From: Euglena gracilis | Taxonomy: Eukaryota | Length of the DNA stretch: 64,000 nt | Assembly: GCA_039621445.1 (NCBI GenBank) | Contig: CP154954.1 | Span: 49,207,847-49,271,846 of the forward strand | Direction of reading: 5' to 3' | In this document: positions 7,797-63,013 of the stretch, in pieces | Layout: the number at the start of each line of letters is the position of its first letter | Numbering within the stretch: position 1 is the first letter of the stretch | The notes under the pieces: generated by a model | Seen by the model: the letters and a program-made list of their open reading frames with translations, nothing else | Databases searched by the model: none | What the model was told of the DNA's origin: nothing | Translations under genes and position numbers: made by a program

Positions 7797-9916
7797 GCTG
7801 GCAGTTCCACTTGGGGCTGTCCCACTTCAGACAAATTCTCGAGGAAATTCGTCCAGGACACCCCCAGTTGTCCAGTTGGAAAGTTTCCAATTGGAAAAAG
7901 GTGCTGGTTACAAAGTGCTGGCTGGACCCCCCCCCCCCGGGTCCCCTGCAGTCGGTGTCCGGGAGTGGGGGTCCAGCCGTTTACGGGCATCCAGTACAGC
8001 CAAAACATGTGCAGCCGGTGGGACCTCACTGGTACCCTGAAAAACTCCAAAACTGTTTTCAAAAACCCCTAAATCCAGCTGGGTGGCAATATTTCAGCCA
8101 AAAATTTGAGGCGAAAACCCCAATGTACCCTCAAGGACATCATTTTCGGCGACTTAGTCCCCTGTTGTGAAAAACTTGGTGCATAATGGTGATTTTTTCG
8201 ACTCAGCCTGGCTGCACTATGTACACCCCGGGAGGGGGATATTTTCGCGGAGTTTATCTGAGAACTGCTGGATATTAAAAAAAATAATAATAATAATCGC
8301 GGTGTGGCTGGATTGCTGGCCATATCCAGAAGTGAAGTTGTTCAAAACAACCATGTTTGAGGCCCATTCAAATCATTGGATACAGAGAAAAATAAGGCAA
8401 CAGGTTTGCCACACCAAAACAGATATACCGAAACAGATGACTATGCAACCCCCAAATCAGACCCACTTGGGATTTTGGGGGAAATGACCCAAAATGGGTT
8501 ATTTTTTTTGAAACGTTCAAAGCAGAACAAAATGTATCGTTCTGCGTCATAAACTGCCCATTTTCAGGTGCATGACCAATTTCATCGTTGATCTTAGGCG
8601 CCGCATCGCTTAAACTTAAGCACTTAAACCTTTTTCTTTATCGATGTGCGCAATTGCGCAAATGGACATTTTTTTTACAAAATCCTTGAACCGCCAACTG
8701 CACCTGGTGAAACAGCAATATGTAAGGTTCACACCTCACGATACAAATTATGAAACACAAAGGTCTCAAACTATCATCCTTACAAATGTATGATACGCCT
8801 GGAGCGACAAATTGGTGGCATTGTCCATGAAACAGGTGGGTTGTGCACCCTGGCGGGGGGGGGGGGGGATGCGCTGGACGGCCCTCGGGAAAAATGCGCA
8901 AAAATGCGCAAAAAAAATGCGCAAAAAATGCGCTGAGTTTGTGACATTCCTAAGGGAAAAAGGACTTAGAAAATTTTCCAACAGCAAACCCAAAATTAAA
9001 CCAAAATCACTAAAAAAGAGCTGAAATGAAGGCATTTTGGCCAAAAAAATGCATCACCAAGGCGTCACTCTCCGTTCACCATAACCAACAATGTGCCATG
9101 GTTGCCCCAAACTTGTGACCAGGGGAGTGGGATTCCCGCCTTGGTTGCGTGTCAATGTGGGGTCTCTGAAACCCCTCGTGTCCTCATCGTCATTGGATGA
9201 GTACCCATACCTCATCACCCAAGGGTTTTCTCTTATTCGATGAGCATGTGATTTGGGTGGAAAATGTACAAAAATGGCAAAATGTGCAAAATTGGGCAAA
9301 AAAAAAAAGCGCAAAAAGTGCGCAAAAATGGAAAATGTGCAAAATTGGGCAAAAAAATGCGCAAAAAAATGGAAAATGTGCAGAAACGGGGGGGAAATGC
9401 GCAAAAAAAAAATGCGCAAAAATACGCATTTTTGAAAAATTGACAAAAATGCGCAAAAAAATGCGCAAAAATGCGGAAAAATGCGCAACGCATTCCCCCC
9501 CCCCCCGCTCTGGTTGTCACGACTGTGGGTTTTGGTGTGTCCGTGCTGCCTGTAGCACGAGAGTCACTCGTGCAAATACAGCCGGCAAGCAGAAGGGGAA
9601 ATCGCCCAGGGAGGGATCTCTCAATTCAGTTGTGGGTGGGGGTGGTTGGGGAAACGGGGAGATGCACACCTGTTTGACGGCGACCAACTTTCCACCATTT
9701 GGACAATGTGACGTGCAGTTATATTAGGCGATGATTGTGGCATAAATAAAACTTTCCAGAACCACTTACACAAAGTGCACATGGCTGGTGTGCGCAAATA
9801 TGTGAATGGTCGATGTGCGATTTGCGCACATCAACCACTTGAAATTTGGAAATATACTCCACAGTTTTCTATATTACCACATGAAAAACAACACCTGCCT
9901 TTTCTTGGCTCTAGAA

Positions 9917-10478
9917 CAGGGGGGAGGGAAAAATGCAACTTGGCCCTTCAAATTATGCAAGTCAAAAAAATGCAAAAAAATGCAAAAAAAATGCAAAAAA
10001 ATGCAAAAAAAATGCAACTTGCAAAAAAACCCTGAGAAAACCCTGAGAAAAGGCTGGAATGTAACAGAGTTGCTGCCAATAATCCATAGACATGTGATAA
10101 TGCCGGTGTATACCTGTCAATGATTCACAAAGAAGACCTCCTGGAAGACAACACTGAGACCCCAAAAACCCCAGGCAACTGCAGAGGGACCAGAGACAAA
10201 ACATGACATTGGCGACCAACTGCAAAAAAGTTTTCCAGGACAAAATATTTTTTGCAAAAAATGCAAAAAAAATGCAAAAAATGCAAAAAAAATGCAAAAA
10301 ATGCAAAGAAAATGCAAAAAAATGCAAACATATGGCGACCAACTACAAAAAAAAATTTCCGGGTCAAAATATTTTATGCAAAAAAATGCAAAGAAATGCA
10401 AAAAAATGCAAATTCCGGAAAAACCCGATTATGCAAAAAAATGCAAATTATGCAAGTTGCATTTTTTCCCTCCCCCTG
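9917..10478. mobile_element. hAT-type MITE family C with (AAAAATGC)n subterminal repeats
   Basis: TIR CAGGGGG(G)AGGGAAAAATGCAACTTG; perfect TSD CTCTAGAA. Confidence 0.92.
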
Positions 10479-11586
10479 CTCTAGAAGAAAAGGTTTGGGC
10501 AAATATTTTGAACGGGTAAACCCCCCCCCTCTTACAACCCCCTTCCACTGAGAAACCCCCCCACTTGTAAACCCCCCCTCAGGCCGACCAACCAAGCCGG
10601 GACTTGCAACCCCCCCCCCCCCCGGGAAGAAAAATGAAAGCCACCGGGGACAATTTTTTTCAGCCACAAACCGCCCAAAAATTGATTTTGGTAAATTTTT
10701 TGAGACCGACCACCATCGAAAATTGCCAATTTGAGGGGTCATTTTGGGGGTTGAACAATTCCGGGACCTATAAACCCCCCTCGGCCAACCAACCAAACCG
10801 GATCCTATTGATCCCGACGGGTTTATAAGTGGGCGGGGTTACCATTTGCAATGTGCGACAAAGAACGGTGGCTTGTAAATGGACTTTTGTTTGACCTCCG
10901 TATTCTGGAGTGCTCTTCATTTTTACAGTTGACGTGCGCACTTGCACACACCAATCATTGTGGACGCAAATCTTTTGAAACTGTGGTGAAAGAATTCTGT
11001 TTTTGGGAACTGGGAATTCATTAGAACCCACCATATGACAGGAGAAAGTTTTGTCTGCTTCATGAGCAGGTGTGTATGTCTTATTTCCAACCCACACGAC
11101 CGATCGTTTTCACGTCCTCGGTTTGAAATTGCCCGTGATTTCTGGACGCTTTTCTTCAAAAATAACGAGGTCCAGAATTTCAAAATTACGCATGTGTAAT
11201 CTTCCAGATGCCTCAGCCAAGAATCATTTGTCCATTTGTACCACAAGGATACCTCATTTTTTTCTCAGACAACATGCAACACACCAGTTTCTTGTGCACA
11301 ATATCCGGGCCAGGCCCATGTGGAAACTGTAGACCACTAGTAAAGGGCCCACCGCCAGCACGTCGCGGCACACGTGCAACAGCACCGTTTGGGCAATGGG
11401 TGGACCTCGAAACCCCCGCCACTTGCCCCTGGTTTGCGTTTTGCAGCAACAGTCACATCAGTTGACGATATTGATTCACTTAAGCATCCACAAGGCCGTC
11501 ATCAGCCCCCACCTGTCACTGGGCCAGAATCAGCCCCAGAAAAAGCCTCGTGTGGAGGAAAAGCGTGTGACAGCTGAAGTTGCACA

Positions 11587-11904
11587 CATGCTTGTGCTTA
11601 CCAACCGGGGGGGGGGGGGAGGGGGGGGGGGTGCTATAGGGTGCCTGCCCCTAGCAGGCACACCCCCCCCGGGGGGGGGGATAGGGGTCCGGGCCGGACC
11701 CAGAAAATTTTCATTGAAAATGGCCTTTTCCGGGCCCCCGGCGCCTTCGGCGCCGGGGTTGGAGGGGGGTGCCTGCTAGGGGCAGGCACCCCCCAAAACC
11801 CCACCCCCCCCCGGGGGGGGGGGGCGGATCGAGTGCTATGGGGTGCCTGCCCCTAGCACCCACCCCCCCCCCGTGGGGTAGGCACCCGACTAAGCACAAG
11901 CCTG
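11587..11904. mobile_element. hAT-type MITE family B
   Basis: TIR CA(T/G)GCTTGTGCTTA; perfect TSD GTTGCACA; internal GGTGCCTGCCCCTAGC repeats. Confidence 0.92.
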
Positions 11905-12885
11905 GTTGCACACCCCAAGGAGCCATTGTAGGTGGTGTTTGGGGTCGTTCTGTCTGAAATTTTACTATTGTGGTCGGTGTGCGCGACACGTCGTCATGGT
12001 GTGCCCATTTCGCACTCCGACGACGTCCATCTTTACGGTCATTACAGTCTGTGAAGGTGTGCAAACGCCGACCACGTGCGCATTTTCGCAAACCGACCAC
12101 ACTTTTTTATTTCGACCTGGTACTTGCATTTGATACATGTGTTTTTTAATGCATTTATGTCTGTTTTCAGAGAAAAGCTGCGTCGTAAAGCCCTTCCAGT
12201 TATTGTTATTTCAAAAGGCTCAATGCAGCGATGCCTGTTCATGTGCCATGATACTTGATTGCACCCCTTTGTACAAAGGTGCCTCAGGTCGGTTTTCGCA
12301 AATGCGCACATATTGACGGTGTGTGCATTTGCGCAAATCGACCTCATATTCCGTAGAGTGGTCGCTGTGTGAAATTGCGCACATCGACATTCTTTCTTGT
12401 CCAAAAGATGGCTGCAATGAATCATTCCAGTGAAATTTGGTTTGGCATCCTAACCTCCCATCCTGGTTCCCTGCGCTCTGGCTGACATCCAAAAACACAG
12501 GTCCGAGGCCGGCAAAAAAAAAAACAAAACAGTGCGTCAAAATCCCCCAAGGGGACCAGCCAGGGCCGCCAACAATCGGTGAGGAGAGCCGTATGCACAA
12601 AATGGGGGGAGGCGGCACCGGAGTTTTGGTGTTTTCTCAGTTTGGGGGGGGCAGGTCTGGGGGTCTTTCATTCCGACGGAAAACAGCAAAAACAAAAACA
12701 CAGAGAGCCGGGGCCAAAAACGAGAAATTCCCTGCATTTTGTCCAATCCTGCTGCCTCTCGCTCTCACCCCTTGCAACACCAGCGTCAAAGTGGCTTTTG
12801 GTCGATGTGCGAAGTTGCTCAAATGGACCAAAAAAAGCTTAAGTGCGAGATGTGCCGCCTAAGTTGATGCACTCACGGCAAACGT

Positions 12886-13570
12886 TCATGCCAGGCTCAC
12901 AGAAGCACCCCACACGCGGTATGTAGCGTTGATTTGCAGGACGATGACCACCCGGCCGTGTTCATCTTGCAGGCACAAACAGGGTTCGATATAAGGAGAG
13001 GAGGGGGGTGGTCCGGACCCCCCCCTGCGGGCCAGGAGGGGGGGGGGACACCCCCCCCACCTAAACAGTGGCGCGGTCAGGGTGAAAATCGCGCCGGGCC
13101 GAAAATTTTTGACCCCCCAAATCGACCAAAAGTGCCATTTTGGGCACTTTTTGCGCAAAAATTGGCCAAAAATGCAAAAAAAATTCGGCGCGAAGCGCCG
13201 GAGGAAAAAATTGATCCTTTTTGGGGGGGTCCCGGGTACCCCCCCAGGGTCGGTCCGGACCCCCCTGGCAGGTGGGGGGGGGGGGGGCCCCCCCCGGGGG
13301 GCCAGGAGGGGGGGGGGGGGGGGGACACCCCCACCTAAACCATGTACGCCCTCCTTATATCGAACCCTGGGCACAAATCGGTACAACTCAGCTCCGGCAT
13401 CCGCAGGATGCGCAGCGCCACACACATGATGCGTCCACTGACAAGGCCCCCATTGGTGCAGGTGACGAAGGCGCGGTCCCCAGGGGCAACCAACCAACAC
13501 CCTCGCCGCACTCCGGTGCATAGCTGCCTCGGGGTCGAATGCTTTCCACTTTGCAAGTCCCTTTGAACAC
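12886..13570 (-). CDS. Coding-like exon(s) interrupted by a MITE (possibly part of the F-box gene)
   Basis: Removing 13372-12975 gives a continuous GC3-rich frame ...QRDLQSGKHSTPRQLCTGVRRGCWLVAPGDRAFVTCTNGGLVSGRIMCVALRILRMPELSCTDLC|LQDEHGRVVIVLQINATYRVWGASVSLA*; no domain recognised. Confidence 0.55.
12980..13369. mobile_element. hAT-type MITE family A
   Basis: TIR CAGGGTTCGATATAAGGAG; perfect TSD GGCACAAA (12972-79 / 13370-77). Confidence 0.92.
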
Positions 13571-13915
13571 TCAGGAAAGAACAGCCTTTGAAAGTAAACA
13601 CCCAGCACTCCAAAGAACTCTTTGTTCAATCACATCACAAAAAAAGAACTGCTGCCAAATTTTGCAAAAAAAAACTGCCAGCCAGGCTTTTGCTCAAGGG
13701 GGTCCACTGTTTAGACATTTTTATAGACACTGGGGGAAAAAAACACCAGCTGGACCCCGCTGCCCTGGGGGAGGGGGGGTTCCGGGTCCCCCCCCCAATG
13801 AAAATCCCTCCGGCGCTGTGCGCCGGGTGGAAAAAAGGTTTTAACACTGCTTTGTGACTGATTCTTTCAAAAAAAACCCAAAAATGACAGTCCGAAAAAA
13901 AATTTTGCTTTGTGC

Positions 13916-14765
13916 GGGGTTTACCACCGGTTCGTGCTAGGAAGCCTGAAATCCGGTTCGTGAGTGTTCGTGATTGTTCGTGATTGTTCGTGATTGTTCG
14001 TGCTTCCAAAAAACCGCCCGGTTTTCCATTTTCCTTGGCAAAAAGTTATTCTTCTTGTGCTTTGGTTTCTTGTGCCTCTTTTAATCAACATATTCAGGTC
14101 AATGGGGAAAGCAAAAGAGGCTTGGAAGATGCACTGCAAAGCAACGAAAAATCAGTGCCAACGTATCATCAAGCAGACTGTGAGATCAGCAATTTTCTGC
14201 CTCTTTGGGGCAGGTTGTTCGTTGGGAACCTGACACCGAAGGACAAAAATACACCTTTTGAAAAACACAAAATACCTCCATATCACGTTTGGGTGCATCC
14301 ATCAATTCACCTAAAAGACCAGGGTTTTCCACAATCTTTGGTTTGCGAAGGAGGTTGTCCTTGCGAGTTGACGATGAAACATGTCGCTTTGCATATGTCT
14401 TCTCGGCCCAGTGCACTGAAACATGGCAAACACTGCACCACATTTCTGAACCTCTCACTTCCATCACTCCACCAAACTGAAAAAGGTGACAAAAAGGGGG
14501 GAAATCAAACAAGATAGATATGACACCTGGGCAGCATGCTTTTGAGGAGTCATTTTGCCACCTCCTTCCATGATCTTTTCTCTTTGGTTAATTGAGCAAC
14601 ACCGTCATTCTCAGAAAAAGACATTTCTGCAAGGGTGACGAAAAAATTCGGTTCGTGATTGTTCGTGATTGTTCGTGATTGTTCGTGATTTTGCCAAAGT
14701 CCCAAGTTTGTGATGGTTCGTGATTGTTCGTGATTGTTCGTGGCACGAACCGGTGAAAAACCCTG
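13916..14765 (-). mobile_element. Internally deleted hAT-type DNA transposon with transposase remnant
   Basis: 8-bp TSD CTTTGTGC (13908-15 / 14766-73); TIR CAGGGTTTTTCACCGGTTCGTGC (left copy degenerate); subterminal (GTTCGTGATT)n arrays at both ends; encodes a zinc-finger remnant. Confidence 0.8.
14150..14571 (-). pseudogene. Truncated hAT transposase N-terminus with CGGBP1-like zinc finger, containing GT-AG introns
   Basis: MEGGGKMTPQKHAAQ | GT-AG intron 14526-14477 | FGGVMEVRGSEMWCSVCHVSVHWAEKTYAKRHVSSSTRKDN...DME | second GT-AG intron ~14275-14230 | VPNEQPAPKRQKIADL. It resembles the CGGBP1 finger (TPxxxxxEFGG...LFCxxC...HLxSxTH) as recalled, not searched. Confidence 0.7.
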
Positions 14766-15049
14766 CTTTGTGCTGGTCAGTTGGAAAAAATTCCTAGCCC
14801 TGCTAGCAGCCACTAGGCCCACTGGGGGGAGGGTGTCCACTTGCCAAATTTGGACTGCCCGCCCCCCCCTTGTTGTACGACCGGGTTCCTGCAACCTGTG
14901 ACCGGGGGGTGGTCATAAATGAGGGGGCGGTCATAGGTAAGGTGGTGTCCAATTTTTCGCAACCTGCAACCTGTGACGGGGGGGGGTGCTCTGGGGTGCC
15001 TGCCCATAGCAGGCACCCCCCCCCCGGTGTTTCCCAGTGCCGACCCAGC

Positions 15050-15343
15050 CATGCTTTTGCTTGCCAACCGGGGGGGGGGGGGGGGTGTGGGTGCTATAGG
15101 GTGCCTGCCCCTAGCAGGCACACCCCCCCCGGGGGGGATAGGGGTCCGGGCCGGACCCAGAAAATTTTCATTGAAAATGGCCTTTTCCGGGCCCCCGGCG
15201 CCGAAGGCGCCGGGGTCGGAGGGGGGTGCCTGCTAGGGGCAGGCACCCCCCAAAACCCTACCCCCCCCCCCCGGGGGGGGTGCCTGCCCCTAGCACCCAC
15301 CCCCCCCCCCCGTGGGGTAGGCACCCGACTAAGCACAAGCCTG
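15050..15343. mobile_element. hAT-type MITE family B
   Basis: Same TIR and body; perfect TSD GACCCAGC. Confidence 0.92.
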
Positions 15344-15429
15344 GACCCAGCCAATTTCCCTTTGAAAATGGCCATTTTCGGGCCCTGGCACCTTCGGCGC
15401 TGGGGGGGGGGTGCTCTAGCACCACCCAC

Positions 15430-15596
15430 CAGGGTTCGATATAAGGACAGGTGGGGGGGGGTGGCCCGGACCCCCCCACCCGGGCAAGGCGGGGGGGGGG
15501 GGGTGGGGGGGACACCCCCCCCCACCTAAACAGGTGTGCGGTCAGGGTGGCCGAATTCGCGCCGGGCCGAAAATTTTTGACCCCCCAAACTTCGAC

Positions 15597-15639
<43 letters not shown>

Positions 15640-15894
15640 AAAAAAAAAAACAAAAAGTGCCATTTTTGGGGCACTTTTTTGTGGCAAAAAATGTGGCCAC
15701 ATGCAAAAAAATTTCGGCGGCAAAGGCGCCGGAGGAAAAATTGAACGCCTTTTTGGGGGGGTCCCCCCGGGAAACCCCCCCGAGGGTCGGTCCGGACCCC
15801 CCTGGCAGGTGGGGGGGGGGTGGTCCGGACCCCTCCATGCGGGCCAGGAGGGGGGGAGCCTAAACCATGTACGCCCTCCTTATATCAAACCCTG
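15430..15894. mobile_element. hAT-type MITE family A
   Basis: Same TIR and body; perfect TSD CCACCCAC; internal poly-A expansion 15598-15650. Confidence 0.92.
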
Positions 15895-19500: not shown

Positions 19501-20059
19501 CGGGGGGGGGGGGAAATGTGCAAAAAAATGCGCAAAATGTGCAAAAAATGCGCATTTTTGAAAAAAATTGACAAAAATGCGCAAAAATGCGGAAAAATGC
19601 GCAGCACATTCCCTCCCTGCTTACTGTTCCTGTCCCGTGGCCCCCTTTTGGGTCCATGGGAACAGTAAGGGGGGGGGGCATGGTATTTCCGGGGGGGCTC
19701 CCAACCCGAATTTGGGCCGCTGGTTGGATTTGAGTTGTTGGCTGGCTGGACCCCCAGGATTGGCTATGACGATCCCAAAGGTCGGGCCGACCATTGGCTA
19801 TGGCTACCGACCCCCCCATATAAGACCCCCCCCCTGGGATTTTGTCTCCCGAGGGGGGTCTTAAATGGGGGGGGGGGGCATGGTATGCCATGGTCGGCCC
19901 GACCTCCGGGATCGTCATGCCAATCATCCACCCGGAGCCCCCCACGGCACCCCGGATTTCCAGATTTCTCCACTTTTCAGGACATTCTCTCCACTAATGA
20001 GGCAAATGACGCTTTCCTTTGACCGGAAAACGAAGTCGAAGGGAGATCAGGCAGTAGAC

Positions 20060-20440
20060 TTTGGTCATTTTGACCCCTCTCCCCCCTCCCCTATGGTAAA
20101 GTTCACCGTTTGAAAGTTCACCGGAAGGTCCCGGACCCTCTCCCCCCCCCCTGCCTAACCCATCGGTGAACTTCACTGGTGAAGTTCACCATGAGCACTT
20201 TTTTGGCCAAAAATGGCCGAAAATGACATTTTTGGGCAAGTTTTCGGAAATTTTCGATTAAATTCCATGAAGCATCAACCTCAAAATGACCATTTTGAAA
20301 GGAAAGGTGCAAAATTTCACCCATGAAAATTTCACCCCCAACCATCAAAACGGTGAAGTTCACCGGTGAACTTCACTAGTGAACTTCACCGCCGAAAGTA
20401 CCCCCCGAACGGTGAACGTTCACCGGTGAAGTTCACCGGA
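20060..20440. repeat. Interspersed element with GGTGAA(C/G)TTCACC palindromic motifs
   Basis: Reverse complement of 31250-31600; a third copy at ~28190-28560. Confidence 0.8.
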
Positions 20441-36533: not shown

Positions 36534-36660
36534 AATGGAGATTTGGCAACGATTACGTCTTCGACAGCGGGCAAGAAGAGGTTTGGGATTGCATCGGAAA
36601 GCCAATGCTGGCAGATGCCTATGATGGCTATAATGTGACTCTCTTTGCCTATGGGCAAAC
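36534..36660 (+). CDS. Kinesin exon: [42 protein letters not shown]
   Basis: Kinesin motif [12 protein letters not shown]; the 5' boundary is inferred from CTG+5 nt and is uncertain. Confidence 0.88.
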
Positions 36661-42600: not shown

Positions 42601-43429
42601 CCGCCACAGGGGTTGGTCAAAAGAAGCCTGCATGGACAATTTGACCTCAAGTGCCTCAAGTGCAGTCAACTGTGGCAATTTTTAGATAAAATCGAATTTG
42701 AAAATTGTGACCAACAAAAATGTTTGAAATAATGGGTGGTGCTTTCATGCCCAGCTTGATTTACCATGAACCCCCCTCTAAATGACCCCCCATCCCAATG
42801 ACCATTTGGGGTGGGGGCCCTTTTGGGTGCGGAAGTCCCCCCTAAGTGAACCCCTTTCCCCTAGATGACTCTTTGGAGGACATGGACCAATATCAACAAG
42901 GTCAGAAGGGGTTGATGATAAATGAATAACATCCTCCCTGCCATTTGAGACGTTTTTTTTTTGTGGACTCTCTTGCGACCGGCCCTGCATGAAACAAAAG
43001 ACCACCGGGTTTTTGTGGAGGGAGTGTCGGTGCACACCATCTTGACACTTGAACGGGTGAACACACTGCTGGCCAAGGGTTTTGCACAGCGGCAGACTTC
43101 AGAAACAAATATGAACGAAAAGTCTTCACGGTCTCATGCCGTTGTTATCTTTCGCTTGGCACAACTCAGGGAACGTTGCCCGTGTTCATTGGAAATTTGT
43201 GGTATCAAGCCTCTATTTTGTCATCTTTTGATCTTTTCTGAATTTGCTTTTTTTCCAACTCGCAAAATTGGTCCCGACAGAACGAAATGATGGGGTGATA
43301 TTGGCACCTCCACCTCGCATCATAGATCCTCTAAGATTTTTGGATTTGGCAAATTAACAAACCAACCAACCAACCAACCAACCAACCAACCAACCAACAA
43401 ACAAATAAACAAGCAAACAAACAAACAAA

Positions 43430-43517
<88 letters not shown>

Positions 43518-46500: not shown

Positions 46501-49500
46501 AATGTGCTGGGGACATAGACGTACCCCCCCCCCTTTGCCCACCAACCACCCCTGAATAACGACCACCCCCCGGTTGGGGGTTGCAGGTCAGGGGGTGCGT
46601 ACGACCACCTCCCTGATCGGGGGTTGTCGGTGGCTTTGGAAACTGGTTTGTTTTTGGCATCTAATCGTACGACCCCCTGGTCGGGGGTTGCAGGTTGGGG
46701 GGCGTGTACGCCCCCCCCCCCTGTTGGGGGAGTAACTTGGGTGGCTTGACTCGCACGTTGATTTTTGCACTGCTCCCAAGCGCAATGTTGCAATCTTTTT
46801 GAAACCCGGCGGTGAAATCCACCCTTTTGCCCTTTGGTCCCACCGAGAACCTCTACAATGGCACGTTCATTTGGTGGTCTTTTTGGCCGGTGCACCATGT
46901 TGAAAAAAGTCCAAAACCCCGGGTTTGAACTCTGGGGCACGTGATTTCTCCCAAAAAGGGCCGTTGTGATTCCCCCATTGTGATTCCCTTGTTTTGAAGC
47001 TTTGACTGTTTTCCCCAGATGGTGCTACGCAGGCTGGGTGAATTTTGGCCCTTTTTGTTGCTTTTTTTTTTAGGCTGTGCGATGTCCGTGTGGGGTTGCC
47101 TGCTGAGGCGCCCAGAGGGTGGACTCTGCACACACGTTGTGAAAAAGGTGGAAACCCGGTGTGCCAGGGAGTTGTGATCCCTGGGTGCTTGAAGCGCGAG
47201 GAGCGGTACACTGGGAACCACCCAGGTAGAGGGGTTGGGGGGGTTGGATTGAGGGGAAGCACGTTCAAGCTCACCTATTGCGTATGTGCGCAATGGATAA
47301 CTGTTGCGCATGTGCGCATGGTAAACGGAAGCCCCTGATCTTATGGGTTCTCTCTCTGGCATGTTATGGTGTGTCAGGAGCAGGCTTGTGCTTAGTCGGG
47401 TGCCTACCCCGCGGGGGGGGGTGCTAGGGGCAGGCATCCCATAGCACCCGATCCGACCCCCCCCCCCAGGGGGGTACGGGGGGGGGTAGGGTTTTGGGGG
47501 GTGCCTGCCCCTAGCGGGCACCCCCTCCGACCCCGGCGCCGAACGCGCTGGGGGCCCGGAAAAGGCCATTTTGAATGAAAATTTTCTGGGTCCCCCCCGG
47601 ACCCCTATCCCCCCCAGGGGCGGTGTGCCTGCTAGGGGCAGGCACCCCATAGCACCCACCCTCCCCCCCCCGGTTGGTAAGCACAAGCATGGTCAGGAGA
47701 CCCTCTCTGCACGGCCAGTGTTGGGCTTGGTGAGGAAATTTGTTTCGCCGATAGAAATGCAATCTTTATACATACACAAGCGTGCCCATTGCGCAGATGC
47801 GCAATGAACATGTTAACGTATGAATTCTTATAATTGCCAAGTGCGCAATGATCACCCACATGTAGAATTAAAAAAGCTAACATCGCCGATGCGCAATGTG
47901 TTTCATTTTTTGTGAAAAGAATTGTTGTGCAACTGCACAATGGAGTCCCCTCGTTTCATTTCCTGGCGCTTTGGGTTCATGCACACGGGGCCTTGGCAGC
48001 CTGTGCCTTCAAACCGTGGTGTTCCAAGTCGTTGTTTTCGCCCCCAGTCCCGGGGGTGCAGGGTCACACCAATTCGGTGAACCTGGGGCCTCGGTGTTTG
48101 AATACAGAATTTTTTGGGACATTGCACATCGGCGCAAGCTTACAGTCACTTTCACAGCTAAATGCGAGTTAGGCTGCCTAACTTGTAGGAACCCGGGGGG
48201 GGGGGTAGGATGTATTGACACGCTGTCTTGGATGGGGAGTAATGCATTTCCCTGCACTTTTATTATCATCATCATTGGTCTTATATTTTAACTTTAACCC
48301 TTTTTGAGTAATAATTTTCATTTTCCTTTTTGGAGGTTGTTGTTTTCTGGAAACAGTTCCAAAATCATGCTGGGACAGCAAAAATTTTTGATTCATTCAA
48401 TGTATTTGACTCCAGCTTATGACATTAAATGAATTTTGTTTCGAACTTGGCCTGGCTTGAGTCCGCCTTGAGCAGGGGCCTATTTATATTTAAGCAGCAC
48501 ATGATGGCAACCCTGGCCACCCACAAAATTTGGAGTGTGCACGTAATCAATTCCCCCACTGTACGTGGTGTGTGTGTGTGTGTGTGTATAGATAGATAGG
48601 AAGATATGGATGTATTTGTGTGTTGGGGCCATATTTTTTTTCCATGGCAGGAAAAATCTGATATTGGAGATGTGGGTTGGTTACCAAAATGCCCTGATTG
48701 CAACAGTTGCGGAAGCAATATGCTCAGCTGGAAGAATTGTGGTCAAGGCGCACCCTTCTGCTTGCTGCATCTGATTTGTGGCCTCATTTAAAACAGTGCA
48801 TTGCACAGGCCCATCAGTCCTGTTGCCGATCTCAAAAACGCGCTCTCAAAATTTGCTCAGCCAATTTTCATTTTTTTTTTCAGGATTTTGATGGGCAACC
48901 AGCAGTTCTGCGATTGGGAGGGGACAGGCTCTACGGGAATCCCTGAAACCCCAAGGCGACCCCATGTTTCAGGCGAGCTGATTTTTAGGTCAAAAGTTTT
49001 CTTTGGCGCCGAAGGAATTTTCTTTTGCTCGGTTCTGCGGGGAGTCGCCCACCTCCCAAACCCCCAACCAGGCCTTCCCATTCCGCTGGAGGGGGGGGGC
49101 TTGTGCAAGCTCTTTTTCAGGAAGGTCGCACCCTCGGAGGGTGCTATGGGCAGGCAGGGGAGTACAACAGCATTTTTTTTAGGATTGGGACCCTGGGGGG
49201 ATTGGGTGGCAAACAAAAAGAAACTGTGGCAAATGCAAAGAAAAAATTGTGTTGCAGAAAAGTGCTGTTGACACGGGGGGGGGGTGTCAACGACACGCCG
49301 TGTCAACAACAAGGGGGGGTAACCCCCCCCTCCCGGGAGAACCACTCAGCGGCTGGGGCATCGGGCTGAGTGGTTCTCTGGGGGGGTTACCCCTCCCCCT
49401 TGTTGTTGCCACGGGATGTCGTTGACACCCCCCCTGTGTCAACGGCACTTTTCTGCAACATATTTTTTTTGGTGAAATATGAGAGGTCCAATCATGGAGG

Positions 49501-52500
49501 CCATTTGCTGGTGCGGTCTGTTTTTTTTTTATGGGATTGTGCCGTTGGCACGGCTATGTCGTTGACCCCCACCCCCGTGTCAATGGCACTTTCCTGGAAC
49601 ATTGGCGTGCCAACCAGGGAATTTCTTAAGCCGGCGGGCACCCTACCCCCCCGGGTGGGGTCCAGCCAGCCAGCAGCTCAAATCCAGCCAGCAGCCCAAA
49701 TTCGGGCTGGGAGCCCCCCCCCCCCCCGGGGGTCGACTGAAATCGGCTCCAGCCCAGCCGGAGGCCGGGCCAGCTGGCCGCAGGCTTGGCCAGCCAACTG
49801 GGCTGCCCAGCTCACATATCCATGCATTTTTCCCCCTCACCACAGCTTCCTCCATCACAGCCCCCCAGCCTTGATCTAGCTCCATCCATCAAAATGTCGA
49901 AAATGGCAAATCTGTGTTAGAAAATTTTGTTTTTCATCGACCCAGCCCAGCCCAGCCCAGCCCCCAGCCCTGGACCCCCCCTCCCCCCCACCCCCCCCCG
50001 GGGGGGTGTCCAGCCAGCAGCTCATTTCCAGCCAGCAGCCTTTTTGCCAGCCGGAGGCTGGACCCCCCCCCCCCCGGGTGGGGGCTTTAAGAAATTCCCT
50101 GGTGCCAACGAAAGGGGAGGGGGCTCAACTTTCGGCGCAAAGCGTCGAAAACTTTTTTGGACCCCAGAAGTTAACCCCCCCCCCCAAAAGTGGGGCCTGG
50201 GGACCCTGGGGGGGGGCAAGGGGGCGTTCGATATTGATTTGCCAGGTCCTACCCACTCATCTTCCCCTCGGCATGCTGCAACCCTGCAAGTCTCACCCCC
50301 ACCACATTTTGCCTCCCCCTTGGGCTTGAATGTGCCACTTCTGCCCCCCCCCCCCAACGCCGGGCTGTGTCGTGGCGGCACCACACCGAGAAGGAGAAGT
50401 CGAAGCAGCAGCAGATGGAGCTGCAGGAGCGGGCGAAGCAGATCCAGACGCTGCGGGAGGAGGTGGAGGCGCTGAAGGCCCAACTGGAGGCCAGGGCGCG
50501 GGCGGGGGTTGCAGGTGTGTTCGGCGCGAGGGGCCGAATTGTTTTCCAACCCGCCTCCCCCAAGCAACCTCGAAAATTGAACCTGCAAAGGTTCAAAATT
50601 GCAATGAGTCCAAAATTAATTATCATCAAAATCCACATCAAATCATGATGAAAATTCGACGGAGGCGGGAAAAAAAACATTTTTTTGGCCAACTTTCGGC
50701 TGCGCGTTTCACGTCGTGCAACCGACAAGAGGAGTTCAAGTCACAGGAGTTCAAGTCGCAGGTCAGGGGTCCAGGGCGAGAAAAAGACTGACCCCCACCG
50801 CAGGAATTGGTTCCCCTTGCAACGATCAAACTTTGGCAGCCTCCCACTATCCGGCCCGTGGGTCGTTAAGTACTTCCAGGGGGGGGGGATGGTGAAACCC
50901 GGGTCCGACTGTCGGGAAAATTCGGGGTTATTTTTTGGAATAGGGTTAGGTGCACGACCGGATTCCCGGATGCTTCCCCTGTTGGGGACTTGAGGGTAAA
51001 GTTCAGCCGGCTTGCGGAACGATCTTTGGGGAATTTGTGTCGATTTTGGGCAATTTTGGCGGAAACATGTGATTCCAAAATCCTTCCCAGAACGGAACCG
51101 GCCGAACTTGGTCCCCAAAAAGTCCCAATTTTGGGCGCGCCAATCCTCACCCTAACGCTATTCCCAACATTAAGGGGGAACCCTCCCCGGGTCCGCCACC
51201 GGTGACCCGGAATCCGCGCGGTTTTCCGGCGCCGCGGGACCGAAAAGTCGAAAAGCGGGCCCGGGTCCCACCATCTGCCCCCCCCCCTGGAAGTATTTAA
51301 CGACCCGCGGGCCGGATAGTGGGAGGCTGCCCTCACTTTATCTGGCACACACACTGGGTGCCACTTTACAGCTACCCGCTGGGCCAACTTTGCATTGTGG
51401 AAAACCCCACAACTGACCCCCTCAAGCAGGCCTGCTGACCTAAGTCTGGCAGGCTTGGTGGCCACAAACACAGCTACCCCCCCCCCCCATGCCAATGAAC
51501 TCCCTTGCCCAATGAACAGGGGGATATCGGGACCGTCCAGCTTGTCACTTTTTACAGCAGTTCAAATGCCCGCGCAGCCTATGCCCCATGGACAGCTCGC
51601 CTGCACCGTGGAGATTGTCATTTTAGCGTTCATTGGGCTTGCGGGGCGGCACGCAGTGCAGGATGAAGGCACAGCCAGAGAAGCCAAATGCTGGGGAATG
51701 GTTCCTGGAAAGGGAGCATCCAGATCGAAAGATGAAAGATCAACGGCTCATGTCCACATGACCCCCACATGTGTGGGGCCCCTCCAACTTGTCCTATGTA
51801 ATGTCTAATTTCACTAAAAATTTTTTTGGGGGGTTGCATCCCAGAAAATACCACGACCCCCCCTCAAATGACCCCCCCCCCCTAAGTGGTCCTCCGGGGT
51901 CCGGTTGGAACATGAACATTTTTTTCAAAATCAAAATGGGCATAAAACACTCATTTTGTTTGAAAATTTTCCGAAAAAAATTTTGATCTGATGGAAAAAA
52001 TGGTGGGTTGCCTGTACTCGAGCTAAGTTGTGTCCTCATTGAGCGGATTTCTGCCGGGGCCGTACTGGCGGTGGGGCGGGGCTGGGGAGGGCGTCCCCCC
52101 CCCCCCGGCGCAGCGCCCTGCGGCTGGGCCGGCCCGCCCGGCCGCTGGAGAAGGGGGCCCCGCTGTTTGTGGGCCGCGCCAAGCTCAGCCTCCGCAACAT
52201 CATCCAGCAGGTGAGCAGCTACAACACGCTGCCCCTCATGCCGAGGGCCGGGCCTGGCCAGGCCGGGCATCCATGCCACACCACAGCCCGACCCGCCCCC
52301 CCCTGAGAGGCCCGGCCCTCCCGGCCAACGGACAACCTGGAGAACGACGGGGCGGCGCTGATGGTGAACACGTTCCCGGTGGTGGACAAGGAGCGTGGGC
52401 ACATCGAGTACGAGACAGTGGAGGAGGGGCTCGCCGCGCTGCTGGGGAAGCGGCTGGTCCAGGCGGCAGGCGGTGGAGTTTCCGTGACGCTGGGTGGGTG

Positions 52501-52519
52501 GGTGCTTGTGGGTGGGTGG

Positions 52520-52562
<43 letters not shown>

Positions 52563-54039
52563 CGTTACACGTTGTGTGTTGTGTGCGTGCATGCATGTGT
52601 TGCGTTTGTGTGCGCGCGCGTGACAATAACCTGGGGTTCACACCCAAATGCACAATACACACACACAATCAGGCTGTATTTTAGTCGGGTGCCGACCCCA
52701 CCCAGGGGGGGGGGGGTAGGGCACTCGGCCAAAAGTGCCCAGCAGGCATTCCGGCACCGAAGGCTCAAAGAAGGCCTAAACCCGCCCCCCCCCCCCAATA
52801 GAAGCGCGGGGCCGCTTCAAGTGCAGGGTCCAAATAAAAGCGCACCCCCAGCTTCGAAGGCGGCGGTCCACTACAAGCGCACCCCCCATTTTGATGAGAT
52901 TTTTAAAGGAAATAAACAAAAATCGGGCAGGAAGGGTCCAAATAGAAGCGCACCCCCCGCCGCCAGAGTCGGCAGTCCGCTACGGGTGGGGGGGGAATTG
53001 GATGCCGAAAAAATTGATTGGGAAAAAATTGGCGTACAGAAATCCTGCGAAATTTTTCCGGCCCTTTTTTTGAAAATCCTGCCTCAAAATTTTCAAAATC
53101 GCCCCTTTTTCCAGTCATCTTGCAAAAAAAAACCTGCCAATTTTTTCCGGGCCATTTTCAGGGTTGGCACCAATTTTTTCGGCTTCCAATTTTGTCGATT
53201 CTAATCTAGCTTCAATCCCCCCCCCCGGTATAAGCGCACCTGCGCTTCCATTGGGGAGGGGGGGTTTATTTTCTAGGAAAATGGCCTATTCTCTGAGGAA
53301 AGTTCCTGGGCACAGGCCGAAATCCGACCTCCCCCCCCAGGGGGAGGGTAGTGCCTGCCTGGGTAGGCACTCAAGGGCACTCCGGAACCCCCTGGGGTTG
53401 GTAAAAGAAACAGAATACACACAACACTCATACACACACAACAGACACAACCATACCATTCATTGCTCCACACCTGTCCCACCCCACCCCTGGGGGGGTG
53501 ACTGACTGATTTTTCAGAGTGACTGACTGGTTTTCTGGCCAAGAACCCCCCCCCCCCCCGGGTGGGGGTGTGGGGTAGGCCCGAAAATAAAACAGTGGCC
53601 GGCCTGGTGCCAAAGGCGCGGAAATTTTTTGGATTTTTTGAGACTTTTTGGCAAATGTTCATTGCCTCTTCCTCATTATTCAAGAGTGGCCGATCCCCCC
53701 AGGGGAGGTAAAGTGACTGACTGGTTGTTGTTTTTTTTGAAAAAATGACTGACTGGTTTTTTCAGAGTGGAAAGTGCCCCCCCCCCCCGGGGTCGTTAAG
53801 CAATGGTATGAACACAACACACACACACACAACGCACAACTCACACAACACACAACACACATACACACAACACACATACACACACAACGCACAACACACA
53901 ACACACAAGACGCACGCACACACACAACACACAACACACACGCAAAAACACATATGATGCACAACACACACGCATCTCACATACACGCACACTCACACAA
54001 TACACGCAAAACACGCACACAACACAGAAACACAAACAC

Positions 54040-54078
<39 letters not shown>

Positions 54079-55947
54079 GCACAACCCACCACCCACAGCC
54101 ACACCCACCCACTCACCCACCCACCCACCCCTGGGCGGGTGCGCCCCCCCCCCTGCCACCAACTGTTCAAGAAAAGAAACCTCTGGTGGGAAGCGTTTTG
54201 ATTCCACGCCTGCAACCTCCTTGTAAACGGCTGGTCGGCGGGAGAATGAGATTTCTTTTTTATTTCTGGTGCAAAGTGTTGACATTGTCCTCTGGTCCTA
54301 AACCCATCCCTGCGTCCACGACAGTTGCCGCGGCATGTGCCGCAGCCTGCCCCCTGCCCGGGACCTGGTGGTCCATGTGATCTCCGCCAAGAACCTGCCA
54401 CAGCAGTACAGCTCCCGGGTGTACTGCAAGTACGTCTTCAAGTACAAGGAGCGGCAGGTGTTTCAGAGCGACATCAAACAGGACACATGTGGCTGGACAA
54501 ATGCCTTTGTGGCGCCGCAGGCCGGAAAAGCTGGATTCACAGGTGTTGGATACAAGAAGGGTGTCATGGCGTTAGGATGGGGGCTGTCCCCCATCCTTTT
54601 TGGCATTGTGCAACAGAATTTTTTACGTTTCGGCCGCTTTTGGGCAACCATTTCTGGGGTGATTCTCACCACACAAACTGGGCCAGAAGCGAAAGTTAGC
54701 GCCGGCTATAAACAGACAAGAAGCCTTAGTCCAACTGCCCCCCCCCCCCCATGTCCAACGACCCCCCTATGTCCAACGACCACCCCCCCGGTCAGAGGAC
54801 ACCTTTTCGGAGGTTTGATGTTTTTTTTTGCAGGTGTGTGAAAACCAGAGGTTTGCCAGCCCTGAAAGGCTTTTCTTCCGCCCTTGTCAAGGATGTCAGT
54901 TTTGGGTGCTATTTGAGTAAATGTTTGTTGACAGGGCTGGAAATGGAGGCGCGAAGCGCCAGAAGGAAAATTTTGACCTGTTTGGGGAGGTTTCGGAAAA
55001 CTTTTTTTTCCCGACCCCGTGTCCAACGACCACCCCCCCGGTCAGAGGACACCTTTTTGGTCAGTACCCTATGTCCAACGACCGCCCCCCCCCGGTCAGA
55101 GGACAGAGGTTACCGGTCATTGGACATTGGGGGGGGAGGGTAGGGGTGGTGGGTGATTCGAGAGTGGGTGGGTGGGTTGCGACCGCTGGACCCCCCCCCC
55201 CCGGGTTGGGCTGCGCCATGGTCAGATTTTGGCGCTTTGGGTGGATGGGCGATGGTCCAAGGATGCTAGAAATCACTTTTTCCCCCGAAGTTGACCCGTT
55301 TTGGGGGGGGGTCAAAGTATGACCAATTTTTTCGTCCATTTTTTGTGTGAATTTTTCATTAAATGTGCTGGGACGGGAGTTTTTTTCCCCGTTAAGGACC
55401 GTCCTGCAGCCAGCGAATTTGTCCAACCTTTTTTTTGCATTTCTGTCCCTCCAAATGTAAGGGGTTTAATGAGTTTCACATTTTGGTTTCGCTTTTTTTG
55501 CGCATTTTTCCATTTTTTTTTGCCGCATTTTTTTTTTGTTTTCTGGCACATCTTTCGTATTTCACTCAATTTTTCGCATTTTTGACTGTTTTTTTTTGAA
55601 AAAAATTTGAATTGTTTTGTCACATTTTTCTTACAATTCCATATTTTTCTTGTAAATTTGGTGCCATGTTGCATGTTTTTGGGTACTTTTTTGTGTTTTA
55701 TTTGCGGGTTTCCTCTCAGATCAACACATTTTGCACATTTTTTTCTGTGGCCGGGCTAGCGCACCCCCCCCCCCTCAAGATGTGGTTGTGGCATTTGTCC
55801 GGGGCTGACCCCGAGTTCGATTTCAAAAAACGGTTCGCGTGGAGCGATCTGACATCGGAGCAAGCTGACTACCTGATGAGCGACAATGTCCTGACGTTCG
55901 AGGTCATTGGCCATCCCGCCGGAGACAGCAGCACTGTGGTGGAGTGA
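36534..55947 (+). CDS. Kinesin motor protein gene (kinesin-3/KIF28-KLP-6-like architecture), 15 exons, 5' end not found; ~523 aa reconstructed
   Basis: Hand-spliced exons 36534-36660, 37434-37469, 41910-42000, 42135-42223, 42981-43163, 43746-43896, 45650-45690, 46135-46254, 46370-46443, 48702-48740, 50380-50488, 52126-52239, 52327-52456, 54362-54490, 55807-55947 join in frame. They give all kinesin motifs in order: [13 protein letters not shown] (P-loop), [27 protein letters not shown] (switch I), VDLAGSER (switch II), [44 protein letters not shown] coiled coil and a C2-like tail follow. Confidence 0.93.
37434..37469 (+). CDS. Kinesin micro-exon (P-loop) [11 protein letters not shown]
   Basis: Completes the GQTGSGKT Walker A motif in frame with the previous exon. 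Confidence 0.9.
37599..37774. mobile_element. TA-flanked MITE family G (inside kinesin intron 2)
   Basis: Same TIR and body as 23880-24060; TA both sides. Confidence 0.85.
38151..38192 (-). repeat. Short interstitial telomere-like (TTAGGG/TCAGGG)n
   Basis: CCCTAA/CCCTGA hexamers, ~6-7 units. Confidence 0.8.
38489..38618. repeat. ~130-bp hairpin element
   Basis: GGTACC..CCCAAAGAGCCGCCCAA.TAGGGTTAA..ACATGGGGGGACCC mirrored on the right arm. Confidence 0.82.
41910..42000 (+). CDS. Kinesin exon [30 protein letters not shown]
   Basis: GLIPR motif; in-frame joins on both sides. Confidence 0.88.
42135..42223 (+). CDS. Kinesin exon [29 protein letters not shown]
   Basis: EIYNExIRDLL motif. Confidence 0.9.
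42981..43163 (+). CDS. Kinesin exon with switch I ([14 protein letters not shown]...[16 protein letters not shown])
   Basis: NxxSSRSH motif; overlaps ORF 42961..43290. Confidence 0.92.
43357..43531. repeat. Compound microsatellite (AACC)n(AAAC)n(AC)n
   Basis: Direct reading. Confidence 0.95.
43746..43896 (+). CDS. Kinesin exon with switch II ([14 protein letters not shown]...INLSLLTL)
   Basis: DLAGSER motif; overlaps ORF 43669..43980. Confidence 0.92.
44869..45391. mobile_element. hAT-type MITE family J (inside a kinesin intron)
   Basis: TIR CAGGGTTGT(A/T)TGGGAA; perfect TSD ACTGGCCC; a related inverted copy lies at ~4950-5285. Confidence 0.9.
45650..45690 (+). CDS. Kinesin micro-exon [13 protein letters not shown]
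   Basis: Continues SLLTL-GxxxxxL helix in frame; flanking intron stems fit the +4/-6 register. Confidence 0.78.
46135..46254 (+). CDS. Kinesin exon [39 protein letters not shown]
   Basis: RxSKLTRLL/GGNSRT microtubule-binding motif. Confidence 0.9.
46370..46443 (+). CDS. Kinesin exon [24 protein letters not shown] (end of motor, neck)
   Basis: Matches the YAxxAKxIxNxAxVN neck-linker pattern of N-kinesins. Confidence 0.88.
47381..47691. mobile_element. hAT-type MITE family B (opposite orientation, inside a kinesin intron)
   Basis: Same TIR; perfect TSD GTCAGGAG. Confidence 0.92.
48702..48740 (+). CDS. Kinesin coiled-coil micro-exon [12 protein letters not shown]
   Basis: In-frame with both neighbours; bounded by CTG+5 nt and 3 nt+CAA. 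Confidence 0.75.
49250..49460. repeat. ~210-bp foldback palindrome
   Basis: TGTTGCAGAAAAGTGC.GTTGACAC...GAGAACCACTCAGC mirrored by GCTGAGTGGTTCTC...GTGTCAAC.GCACTTTTCTGCAACA. Confidence 0.88.
49615..50101. mobile_element. hAT-type MITE family K (inside a kinesin intron)
   Basis: TIR CAGGGAATTTCTTAA; perfect TSD GTGCCAAC; internal CCAGCCAGC repeats; a related end lies at 60511. Confidence 0.9.
50380..50488 (+). CDS. Kinesin coiled-coil exon [35 protein letters not shown]
   Basis: GC3-rich codons, heptad-like composition, in-frame joins. Confidence 0.85.
50835..51331. mobile_element. MITE with ~50-bp TIRs
   Basis: GGCAGCCTCCCACTATCCGGCCCG..GGTCGTTAA.TACTTCCAGGGG inverted at both ends; imperfect flanking repeat CAAACTTT/CTCACTTT. 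Confidence 0.8.
52126..52239 (+). CDS. Kinesin tail exon [37 protein letters not shown]
   Basis: GC3-rich and in frame; upstream intron stem CAGGGCGC/GCGCCCTG. Confidence 0.8.
52327..52456 (+). CDS. Kinesin tail exon [43 protein letters not shown]
   Basis: GC3-rich; the preceding 87-nt intron has a perfect 13-bp stem GAGGGCCGGGCCT/AGGCCCGGCCCTC. Confidence 0.82.
53810..54130. repeat. Degenerate (CA)n microsatellite
   Basis: Direct reading; (GT)n tracts also at 52523-52620 and 62936-63010. Confidence 0.9.
54362..54490 (+). CDS. Kinesin C2-like tail exon [43 protein letters not shown]
   Basis: C2-type LxVxVxxAxNLP...YCK pattern. Confidence 0.85.
55807..55947 (+). CDS. Probable terminal kinesin exon [46 protein letters not shown]
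   Basis: C2-type (N/D)PxF...LxFEV pattern; stop at 55945-55947 (a further intron before the stop is not excluded). Confidence 0.8.
   Translation, partial: DPEFDFKKRFAWSDLTSEQADYLMSDNVLTFEVIGHPAGDSSTVVE

Positions 55948-62974: not shown

Positions 62975-63013
<39 letters not shown>

Follow-up and report, generated by a model that had tools for sequence, protein, structure and literature searches.

Nonconventional introns of a Euglena gracilis kinesin gene and neighbouring hAT-like miniature elements with 8-bp target-site duplications

[quoted passage not shown] Judged by its sequence, the locus is a Euglena gracilis-type nuclear kinesin gene, because the translation of one exon found, at 100% identity, the transcript-derived protein EG_transcript_6461 of eukprot (P0001; 611 aa), which has the precomputed Pfam families PF00225, PF16796 and PF00168 (kinesin motor, microtubule binding and C2). 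Exact-word chaining of this protein, combined with an enumeration of junctions, gave a kinesin + C2 gene with its coding sequence (CDS) at 26505-55947 of the + strand, divided into 18 exons by 17 CDS introns and followed by one more intron in the 3' untranslated region (3'UTR). The joined exons translate into 611 aa and a stop, with two mismatches to P0001 (T174M and R192K). The exons are the following:

Kinesin CDS exons 1-6, + strand: 26505-26651, 33820-33858, 35335-35427, 36551-36660, 37434-37469, 41910-41999
Kinesin CDS exons 7-12, + strand: 42134-42223, 42981-43163, 43746-43896, 45650-45690, 46135-46254, 46370-46443
Kinesin CDS exons 13-18, + strand: 48702-48740, 50380-50488, 52126-52239, 52327-52456, 54362-54490, 55807-55947

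RNA evidence was mapped on 36300-56299, using two RNA-like contig sets (X1 and X3) and two raw RNA-seq runs (X21 and X24). Introns 1-3 lie outside this stretch and were placed from protein-level mapping only, and a cluster of MITEs at 9917-15894 likewise lies outside it. RNA joints confirm the 14 introns from i4 to i17 at exactly the predicted lengths (773, 4440, 134, 757, 582, 1753, 444, 115, 2258, 1639, 1637, 87, 1905 and 1316 nt), with 52-111 joint reads per intron in run X21. At the nucleotide level the junctions of these introns can slide by 3, 6, 1, 1, 1, 0, 3, 0, 5, 0, 2, 0, 2 and 2 nt, respectively, a slide of 0 marking an unambiguous junction. The additional 3'UTR intron (56103-56739) was recognized from a loose end at 56102 (52 reads, X21) that rejoins at 56740, and for intron 3 an RNA loose end at 36542 bears the letters of the upstream exon. 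About half of the raw X21 reads show another base at nine exonic positions of the kinesin gene (43782, 43845, 46159, 46379, 52357, 54400, 55830, 55866 and 55917), which suggests the presence of two expressed alleles or of near-identical paralogues. The introns are listed below with the letters before, within and after the terminal helix and, in lower case, the first base of the downstream exon:

Intron 1, 26652-33819, + strand, 7168 nt: GTT CAG...CTG CTGCC, then g; in register; protein-level mapping only
Intron 2, 33859-35334, + strand, 1476 nt: helix CAGCT/AGCTG, spacer sum 7, an exception; contains MITE 34103-34728
Intron 3, 35428-36550, + strand, 1123 nt: AAG CAAGTCTCCATTT...AAATGGAGATTTG GCAAC, then g; 13-bp helix; in register
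Intron 4, 36661-37433, + strand, 773 nt: AAT CAA...CTG CCCAC, then a; CA/TG core only; RNA joint, slide 3
Intron 5, 37470-41909, + strand, 4440 nt: AGA CAGGGTTTGAC...GTCAAACCCTG GAGGA, then g; RNA joint, slide 6
Intron 6, 42000-42133, + strand, 134 nt: terminal helix of about 18 bp, spacer sum 7, an exception; RNA joint, slide 1
Intron 7, 42224-42980, + strand, 757 nt: GTT CAAGAGA...TCTCTTG CGACC, then g; in register; RNA joint
Intron 8, 43164-43745, + strand, 582 nt: ACT CAGGGA...TCCCTG GGGAC, then a; in register; RNA joint
Intron 9, 43897-45649, + strand, 1753 nt: AGC CAA...CTG CCTTG, then g; RNA joint, slide 0; contains MITE 44869-45391
Intron 10, 45691-46134, + strand, 444 nt: GGG CAC...GTG CTGCC, then g; in register; RNA joint
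Intron 11, 46255-46369, + strand, 115 nt: GTC CAGCAG...CTGCTG CGTGC, then a; RNA joint, slide 0
Intron 12, 46444-48701, + strand, 2258 nt: AGC CAGG...CCTG ATTGC, then a; RNA joint; contains MITE 47381-47691
Intron 13, 48741-50379, + strand, 1639 nt: GGT CAA...GTG GCGGC, then a; RNA joint, slide 0; contains MITE 49615-50101
Intron 14, 50489-52125, + strand, 1637 nt: GGC CAGGGCGC...GCGCCCTG CGGCT, then g; in register; RNA joint
Intron 15, 52240-52326, + strand, 87 nt: GCC GAGGGCCGGG...CCCGGCCCTC CCGGCC, then a; N3+N6 with GAG/CTC, an exception; RNA joint, slide 0
Intron 16, 52457-54361, + strand, 1905 nt: GTC CAGGCGGCAGG...CCTGCCCCCTG CCCGG, then g; inverted repeat 11/12; contains element 53452-53810
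Intron 17, 54491-55806, + strand, 1316 nt: GGC TGGACAAATGCC...GGCATTTGTCCG GGGCT, then g; 12-bp helix; in register; RNA joint
Intron 18 (3'UTR), 56103-56739, + strand, 637 nt: GTT CGG...CCG plus 9 nt, an exception; RNA loose end

None of the 18 introns is of the GT-AG type: GT/GC...AG borders are found in 0/17 CDS introns in any allowed register compatible with the RNA joints, and i18 reads GT..CC. A preliminary description of this DNA had assigned 12 of 14 kinesin introns to a register in which the upstream exon is followed by three nucleotides and one arm of a helix, and the other arm by five nucleotides and the downstream exon (N3/N5), and exactly 12 of the 14 RNA-confirmed introns fit this register within their slide range, as do 14/18 introns overall. 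Junctions off the register, which that description had named as the outcome that would speak against its reading, occur among the RNA joints of this gene at i6 and i15. The four unambiguous junctions include three that are exactly N3-CA./.TG-N5 (i9, i11 and i13) and one, i15, that is N3-GAG...CTC-N6. Of the 14 in-register introns, 11 have helices that begin and end with CAG/CTG (seven introns), CAA/TTG (two), CAC/GTG (one) or TGG/CCG (one), and the other three have the CA/TG core only. Terminal complementarity reaches at least 9/12 in 11 of the 17 introns, compared with 0.65% of random CA..TG pairs, and the z-scores of the duplexes formed by the intron ends range from -0.2 to -7.2, being -3 or lower in 9/17. 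A purine opens both the intron and the downstream exon in 18/18 cases (the window is 50% purine), and a pyrimidine closes the upstream exon in 13/18 and the intron in 15/18. The 3'UTR intron is a nonconventional intron beyond the N3/N5-6 rule, with a CGG..CCG helix plus 7 bp and then a 9-nt 3' spacer.

The same window is populated by MITEs with target-site duplications (TSDs) of 8 bp. Nine 8-mers had been listed beforehand as perfect TSDs, and each of the nine was recovered as a direct repeat on the two sides of an element, the elements being 294-850 bp long. Our scan of the whole window was unbiased in this respect, as it started from inverted repeats and not from duplications, and took all CA./.TG pairs with at least 11/14 complementary bases. 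Among the 1084 pairs obtained, the flanks agree at 8/8 positions in nine and at 7/8 in three, whereas a control on the same pairs, in which the right flank was displaced by 20 nt, gave none and one, respectively. TSD lengths other than 8 are not enriched: exact flank repeats of 9 bp or more were not found among the 1084 pairs, and those of 5, 6 and 7 bp appear in two pairs each. Altogether, 11 elements have perfect 8-bp duplications, including 9917, with low-complexity arms, 13916, with a degenerate end, and the previously unlisted 4399-4631 and 34103-34728. Two of the three pairs with 7/8 flanks were also entered as elements (53452-53810 and 61670-61924).

Self-comparison of the window resolved these elements into at least six families, as had been claimed: A (11587, 15050 and 47381), B (12980, 15430 and 3564), C (9917 and 59009), D (44869) and E (49615), plus singletons. 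Copies of one family share 77-88% identity and have different duplications. The ends previously given as CAG(GG)...(CC)CTG describe most families well, with CAGGG in B, C, D, E, 34103 and 61670, but family A and 4399 have CAGGC/CATGC and the left end of 13916-14765 is degenerate (GGGG...); ends of the form CA(G/T)...C(T/A)TG are found in 8/9 listed elements. MITE bins are covered by RNA contigs at tens of times the depth of exons, which is what transcribed repeats present in many copies should give. Five introns (i2, i9, i12, i13 and i16) have an element nested within them. The elements are:

MITE family B copy, 3564-3984, 421 bp: left end CCGGG; G-run flanks, uninformative
MITE, 4399-4631, 233 bp: CAGGCTTC...GGAGCCTG; TSD ATTGTCGC (8/8)
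MITE family C, 9917-10478, 562 bp: CAGGGGGGAGGG...CCCTCCCCCTG; TSD CTCTAGAA; related copy at 59009-59454
MITE family A, 11587-11904, 318 bp: CATGCTTGTGCTTA...TAAGCACAAGCCTG; TSD GTTGCACA
MITE family B, 12980-13369, 390 bp: inverted repeat 19/20 (CAGGGTTCGATATAAGGAG); TSD GGCACAAA
MITE, 13916-14765, 850 bp: right end ...CCCTG, left end degenerate (GGGGTTT); direct repeat CTTTGTGC
MITE family A, 15050-15343, 294 bp: TSD GACCCAGC
MITE family B, 15430-15894, 465 bp: TSD CCACCCAC
MITE, 34103-34728, 626 bp: CAGGGCAGAA...TTCTGCCCTG; TSD GGGACCCC; inside intron 2
MITE family D, 44869-45391, 523 bp: inverted repeat 18/20; TSD ACTGGCCC; inside intron 9
MITE family A, inverted relative to 11587, 47381-47691, 311 bp: TSD GTCAGGAG; inside intron 12
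MITE family E, 49615-50101, 487 bp: CAGGGAATTTCTTAA; TSD GTGCCAAC; inside intron 13; agrees with the full published splicing code (see below) on the + strand
Element with terminal inverted repeats, 53452-53810, 359 bp: CATACCATT...; flanks 7/8; inside intron 16
MITE family C copy, 59009-59454, 446 bp: inverted repeat 19/20; low-complexity flanks
MITE, 61670-61924, 255 bp: CAGGGCGGTCCTTAAGGG; inverted repeat 19/20; flanks 7/8

Upstream of the kinesin gene, six TSD-flanked MITEs lie within 6 kb (9917-15894), a cluster that may be a local insertion hotspot or, alternatively, may lie in the large intron of a gene that was not seen. For the terminus of family B, GGGTTCGATAT... (12980-12997 etc.), 17 loci with an exact 18-mer match were also found in unrelated metagenome contigs; nothing but the 18-22-mer itself matched, and these matches were judged to be due to chance.

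The spacing of the introns and the length of the duplications can be related through the published splicing rule. (Papers identified by a PMC number are cited here for what excerpts of their text state.) Knock-in experiments have shown that nonconventional introns introduced into a foreign exon are still spliced, that splicing demands a 5' spacer of exactly 3 nt and a 3' spacer of 5 nt, or at most 6, that CAG and CTG must pair, and that the downstream exon begins with a purine (Nomura et al. 2025, PMC12501133). It follows from a rule of cutting 3 nt and 5 nt away from the helix that an element ending in CAG...CTG and flanked by an 8-bp TSD would be removed as element + 8, without a scar. The arithmetic put forward in the preliminary description, in which 3+5 equals one 8-bp TSD, is thus right, and it holds for the 11/11 perfect-TSD MITEs, for which the length removed when they are read as N3+element+N5 is that of the element + 8. 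Exact CAG...CTG ends are present in 7/11 of them, and in 5 of those 7 the purine that the rule asks for is there too, on one strand or on both.

If introns derive from such elements, relics of the elements might be recognizable in some of them, and intron 5 has several. It was picked out blind as a terminal inverted repeat (TIR) element by the inverted-repeat scan, and has a perfect 11/11 TIR, CAGGGTTTGAC. Its 5' 18-mer matches the terminus of MITE family B at 16/18 positions (2 mismatches), a similarity for which 0.08 hits would be expected window-wide at three or fewer mismatches and 0/100 shuffles gave more than one. We relied on this shuffle and expectation test because the null for general terminus similarity was contaminated by sampled real MITE ends. 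The 8-mers flanking intron 5 (GAGGAAGA/GAGGAGGG) agree at 6/8 positions, as do those flanking intron 12 (GTTGCAGC/ATTGCAAC). The comparison of intron stems with MITE TIR families that had been suggested beforehand therefore has a divided outcome, with a terminus related to family B in i5, the only intron of the 64-kb window whose terminus is related to a multi-copy family, and no full-length family member among the introns. The comparison of flanking 8-mers with a control gave an excess of identity. In the 14 in-register introns the flanking 8-mers have a mean identity of 3.57, compared with 2.50 for cross-pairs (permutation P=0.0037), and in all 17 CDS introns 3.41 compared with 2.47 (P=0.0037); the sample is small and comes from one gene, and, as cross-pairs share the junction consensus, effects of the consensus are removed. 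The profile of matches, 50/112 at offsets -5..+2 and approximately 3.7-4.1 per position outside, does not single out that register, as -6..+1 and -4..+3 also sum to 50. A further resemblance concerns the bases that follow CA(G/A), which are GG or GC in 15/28 CA-starting intron termini and in 25/27 MITE termini, against a background of 13%.

The elements look hAT-like, a purely structural call made from their 8-bp TSDs, their CAGGG or CAGGC termini and a target bias towards T2/A7. Elements of the hAT superfamily, non-autonomous ones included, are recognized by TSDs of 8 bp, termini of the YARNG type and target patterns like NTCTAGAN and NTNNNNAN, and lizard hAT families start with CAGGGG, CAGTG or TAGGC (PMC3014272). 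The window elements have TSDs of this length and YARNG-type termini, CAGGG being an instance of YARNG; one of their TSDs, CTCTAGAA, resembles the published target patterns, and a T at TSD position 2 or an A at position 7 is found in 11/22 cases (binomial P=0.007; small n). Family A and 4399 depart from the pattern with a C at terminal position 5, and neither a transposase nor an autonomous copy was seen in the window, with 0 Pfam hits in 20 open reading frames (10 long ones from across the window and 10 from intron 5). The elements could belong instead to another superfamily with TSDs of about 8 bp, such as Merlin or P-like elements, in which case the hAT label would be wrong and the arithmetic would still be valid. 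Merlin transposases, which generate 8-bp TSDs, are in fact the sole DNA transposons that we found reported for E. gracilis (PMC8101967), and none of the 20 open reading frames looks like a hAT transposase. However, Merlin families, including those of E. gracilis, all start with 5'-GG (PMC8101967) and have TSDs of 8-9 bp; the TSD length of the window elements fits this description and their termini, which start with CA immediately after the perfect 8-bp repeats, do not, while termini and target bias agree with the hAT hallmarks YARNG and NTNNNNAN (PMC3014272). We therefore regard a different superfamily as very unlikely and consider that the elements are probably mobilised by a hAT transposase.

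On balance, we lean towards the view that two populations, alike in structure and joined by a common mechanism, are present in the window. The first would be young, multi-copy, non-autonomous hAT-type transposons with CAGG(G/C)...(G/C)CCTG ends and 8-bp TSDs, located in non-coding DNA and introns, and the second the nonconventional introns of the kinesin gene, in which a terminal helix extends from 3 nt inside the 5' junction to 5 nt before the 3' junction. According to this proposal, a MITE would insert into a transcribed exon and its TIRs would fold into a helix that is read by the nonconventional splicing machinery, the enzyme probably being a helix-measuring endonuclease plus a ligase. By cutting 3 nt upstream and 5 nt downstream of the helix, the machinery would eliminate the element together with 8 nt, that is, one copy of the TSD, and the messenger RNA would be restored without a scar whichever the orientation of the insertion. 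Such near-neutral insertions could then become fixed as introns and decay until nothing but the CA/TG core of the helix, the spacing and the junction purine was left, so that, as a class, the introns would descend from these elements. A purine at both junctions of every intron would be expected, because the two positions would be copies of one target position. The broader proposition that nonconventional splicing is the scarless excision, at the RNA level, of hAT-type transposons, with the TIR hairpin being read and the offsets summing to the 8-bp stagger of the transposase, is one that we advance tentatively, as a possibility that the present locus raises.

Several observations weigh against descent of the introns from these elements. 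The idea of an intron-generating system agrees with the arithmetic, the terminus of intron 5 and the excess of 8-mer identity, but 4/18 introns are off register, with spacer sums of 7 (i2 and i6), 9 (i15) and 12 (i18) rather than 8. The strict published code, N3CDG/CH'GN5 followed by R, which was derived from E. agilis, is followed by only 7/18 introns, and the CAT/CAG terminus of family A fails it. Most introns have no TSD relic, 8-mer identity being 3 or less in 6/14 in-register introns, and i6 has a long, MITE-like helix and yet its flanks agree at 2/8 in the splice register (approximately 1/8 around the helix ends, by eye); these flanks and the off-8 spacer sums imply that not every intron can be a scarless insertion with an 8-bp TSD. 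Self-comparison found no full-length family copies among the introns of the 64-kb window. The small introns have no second copy in it and one intron bin is nearly devoid of RNA-contig depth, so that most introns are not recognizable family members. No MITE is found in an exon within the window, all of them being in introns or non-coding DNA. The lack of a transposase, the unspecific offset profile and the restriction of the intron statistics to a small sample from one gene have to be added to this list.

These difficulties could be taken to mean that ordinary hAT-type MITEs coexist by coincidence or convergence with introns of unrelated origin, be they converted conventional introns or break-repair insertions, and that 3+5=8 is accidental. 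Short direct repeats have been described at 84.4% of all E. agilis introns, conventional ones included (PMC12501133), break-repair insertion also leaves such repeats, and the excess of matches is highest at offsets -2..0, as generic short junction repeats would give; the introns lacking a TSD relic and the four that break the arithmetic also speak for this reading. On this view introns and MITEs would each need a terminal inverted repeat for separate reasons; GC-rich helices would favour CAGG through their stability alone, and hAT termini start with CAG in many organisms. Nevertheless, it is improbable that CAG/CTG identity, the position of the helix and a spacer sum matching the TSD should all coincide, intron 5 and family B have 16/18 terminal bases in common, and the permutation test on the 8-mers is already free of junction consensus effects, and for these reasons we consider an accidental relationship unlikely. 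It is similarly doubtful, in our opinion, that splicing acts as a filter and not as the source of the introns, that is, that an older, independent splicing process allows hAT-like MITEs to survive in genes and to add some young introns, such as i5, while the bulk arose otherwise. This would explain why an element-derived look is apparent in i5 alone (and weakly in i12 and i9), why introns with TGG/CCG or GAG/CTC helices and with N6 or N9 spacers exist, and why the MITEs of the window are located in introns and non-coding DNA; it is at odds with the extended CAGG(G/C) bias that intron and MITE termini have in common and with the purine found at both junctions throughout the gene.

The window contains other repeats. 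A segment of approximately 63 nt in intron 17 (54674-54736) attracts many RNA reads that continue at either end into different sequence (41-65 loose-end reads on each side), shows a fixed T>C difference at 54707, and is related to a stretch within 27851-28447 of intron 1; it has no Rfam match, nor has any other part of the window, and is apparently a short repeat with high expression that stems from another place in the genome. Intron 1 (7.2 kb) contains an inverted duplication with foldback structure (28557-29383 / 30209-31078, arms of about 870 bp and about 75% identity) and further repeats in common with 19138-20489. Long microsatellites of the (AC)n/(GT)n type are found at 43332-43565 (intron 8), 52455-52590, 53812-54157 (intron 16) and 62886-63043 (downstream), and RNA reads seem to be broken off at some of them.

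How euglenid nonconventional introns originated and how they are excised has been an open question since the 1990s, and their origin was still called unclear in papers of 2018 and 2025 (PMC12501133). A MITE-like origin was proposed in 2014 (Milanowski et al., PMC3935182), in a paper according to which no transposable element was as yet known from euglenids, and was restated in 2018, 2024 (PMC11282704) and 2025 (PMC12501133); the 2024 review labels CAG/CTG as terminal inverted repeats and calls the junction repeats TSD-like. The preliminary description had left undecided whether its TSD arithmetic was already known. The MITE origin, the TSD-like repeats and the N3/N5 code are indeed published, but in the literature covered, which did not extend to supplements and subscription journals, we found no named superfamily or family, no 8-bp length and no equation of 3+5 with the duplication for these introns. 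The hAT/3+5=8 proposal therefore gives a published hypothesis a sharper form that is specific and can be tested, and is not a new category. By naming a type of transposon and a quantitative link between the 3-nt and 5-nt spacers and the 8-bp duplication, it makes what was a general 'MITE-like' idea open to checks: one would expect young introns to belong to element families, the direct repeats to have their maximum at 8 nt in a single register, and a MITE inserted with its duplication to be spliced out of a reporter exon cleanly. The link would also explain the consensus shared by the two junctions and the harmless spread of introns in coding sequence. If the broader proposition on scarless excision is true, the nonconventional introns, which number in the hundreds of thousands, would be hAT MITEs in decay, and the Y/R consensus, identical at the two junctions, would go back to duplication of the target site.

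The kinesin introns resemble the euglenid nonconventional introns described so far in their non-GT-AG borders, the terminal helix (PMC3935182, PMC11282704, PMC12501133), the pyrimidine-purine step at both junctions, the TSD-like repeats and, in seven of the 18, the pairing of CAG at +4..+6 with CTG at -8..-6 and the code N3-CDG...CH'G-N5-6 followed by R (PMC12501133). Euglenid nonconventional introns are further described as leaving the transcript later than the conventional ones, in the form of full-length circular RNA. Unlike the earlier euglenid papers, whose excerpted text names no family, superfamily or TSD length, we can point to concrete CAGG/8-bp-TSD families beside and inside the introns, to one intron with a family terminus, and to a spacer sum tied to the length of the TSD. 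Outside euglenids, the transposon-derived introns of Amoebophrya and Fritillaria are similar in having TIRs, TSDs, non-GT-AG borders and multiple copies, but the TSDs of Amoebophrya are 3-5 nt long, an altered spliceosome is invoked and, in the review's excerpted account, no fixed 3/5 helix offset is involved (PMC11282704). The introners of Micromonas and Aureococcus are another case in which a non-autonomous transposon has become an intron and the TSD takes part in the splice geometry, the exon being restored on excision (Huff, Zilberman and Roy 2016, cited via PMC11282704). They are spliceosomal, the element bringing one splice site and a 3-nt TSD being co-opted for the other (PMC11282704), whereas in the mechanism that we propose for Euglena an RNA helix would be the reference for both cuts, made by a machinery that is probably non-U2, and the 8-bp TSD would serve as the spacers only.

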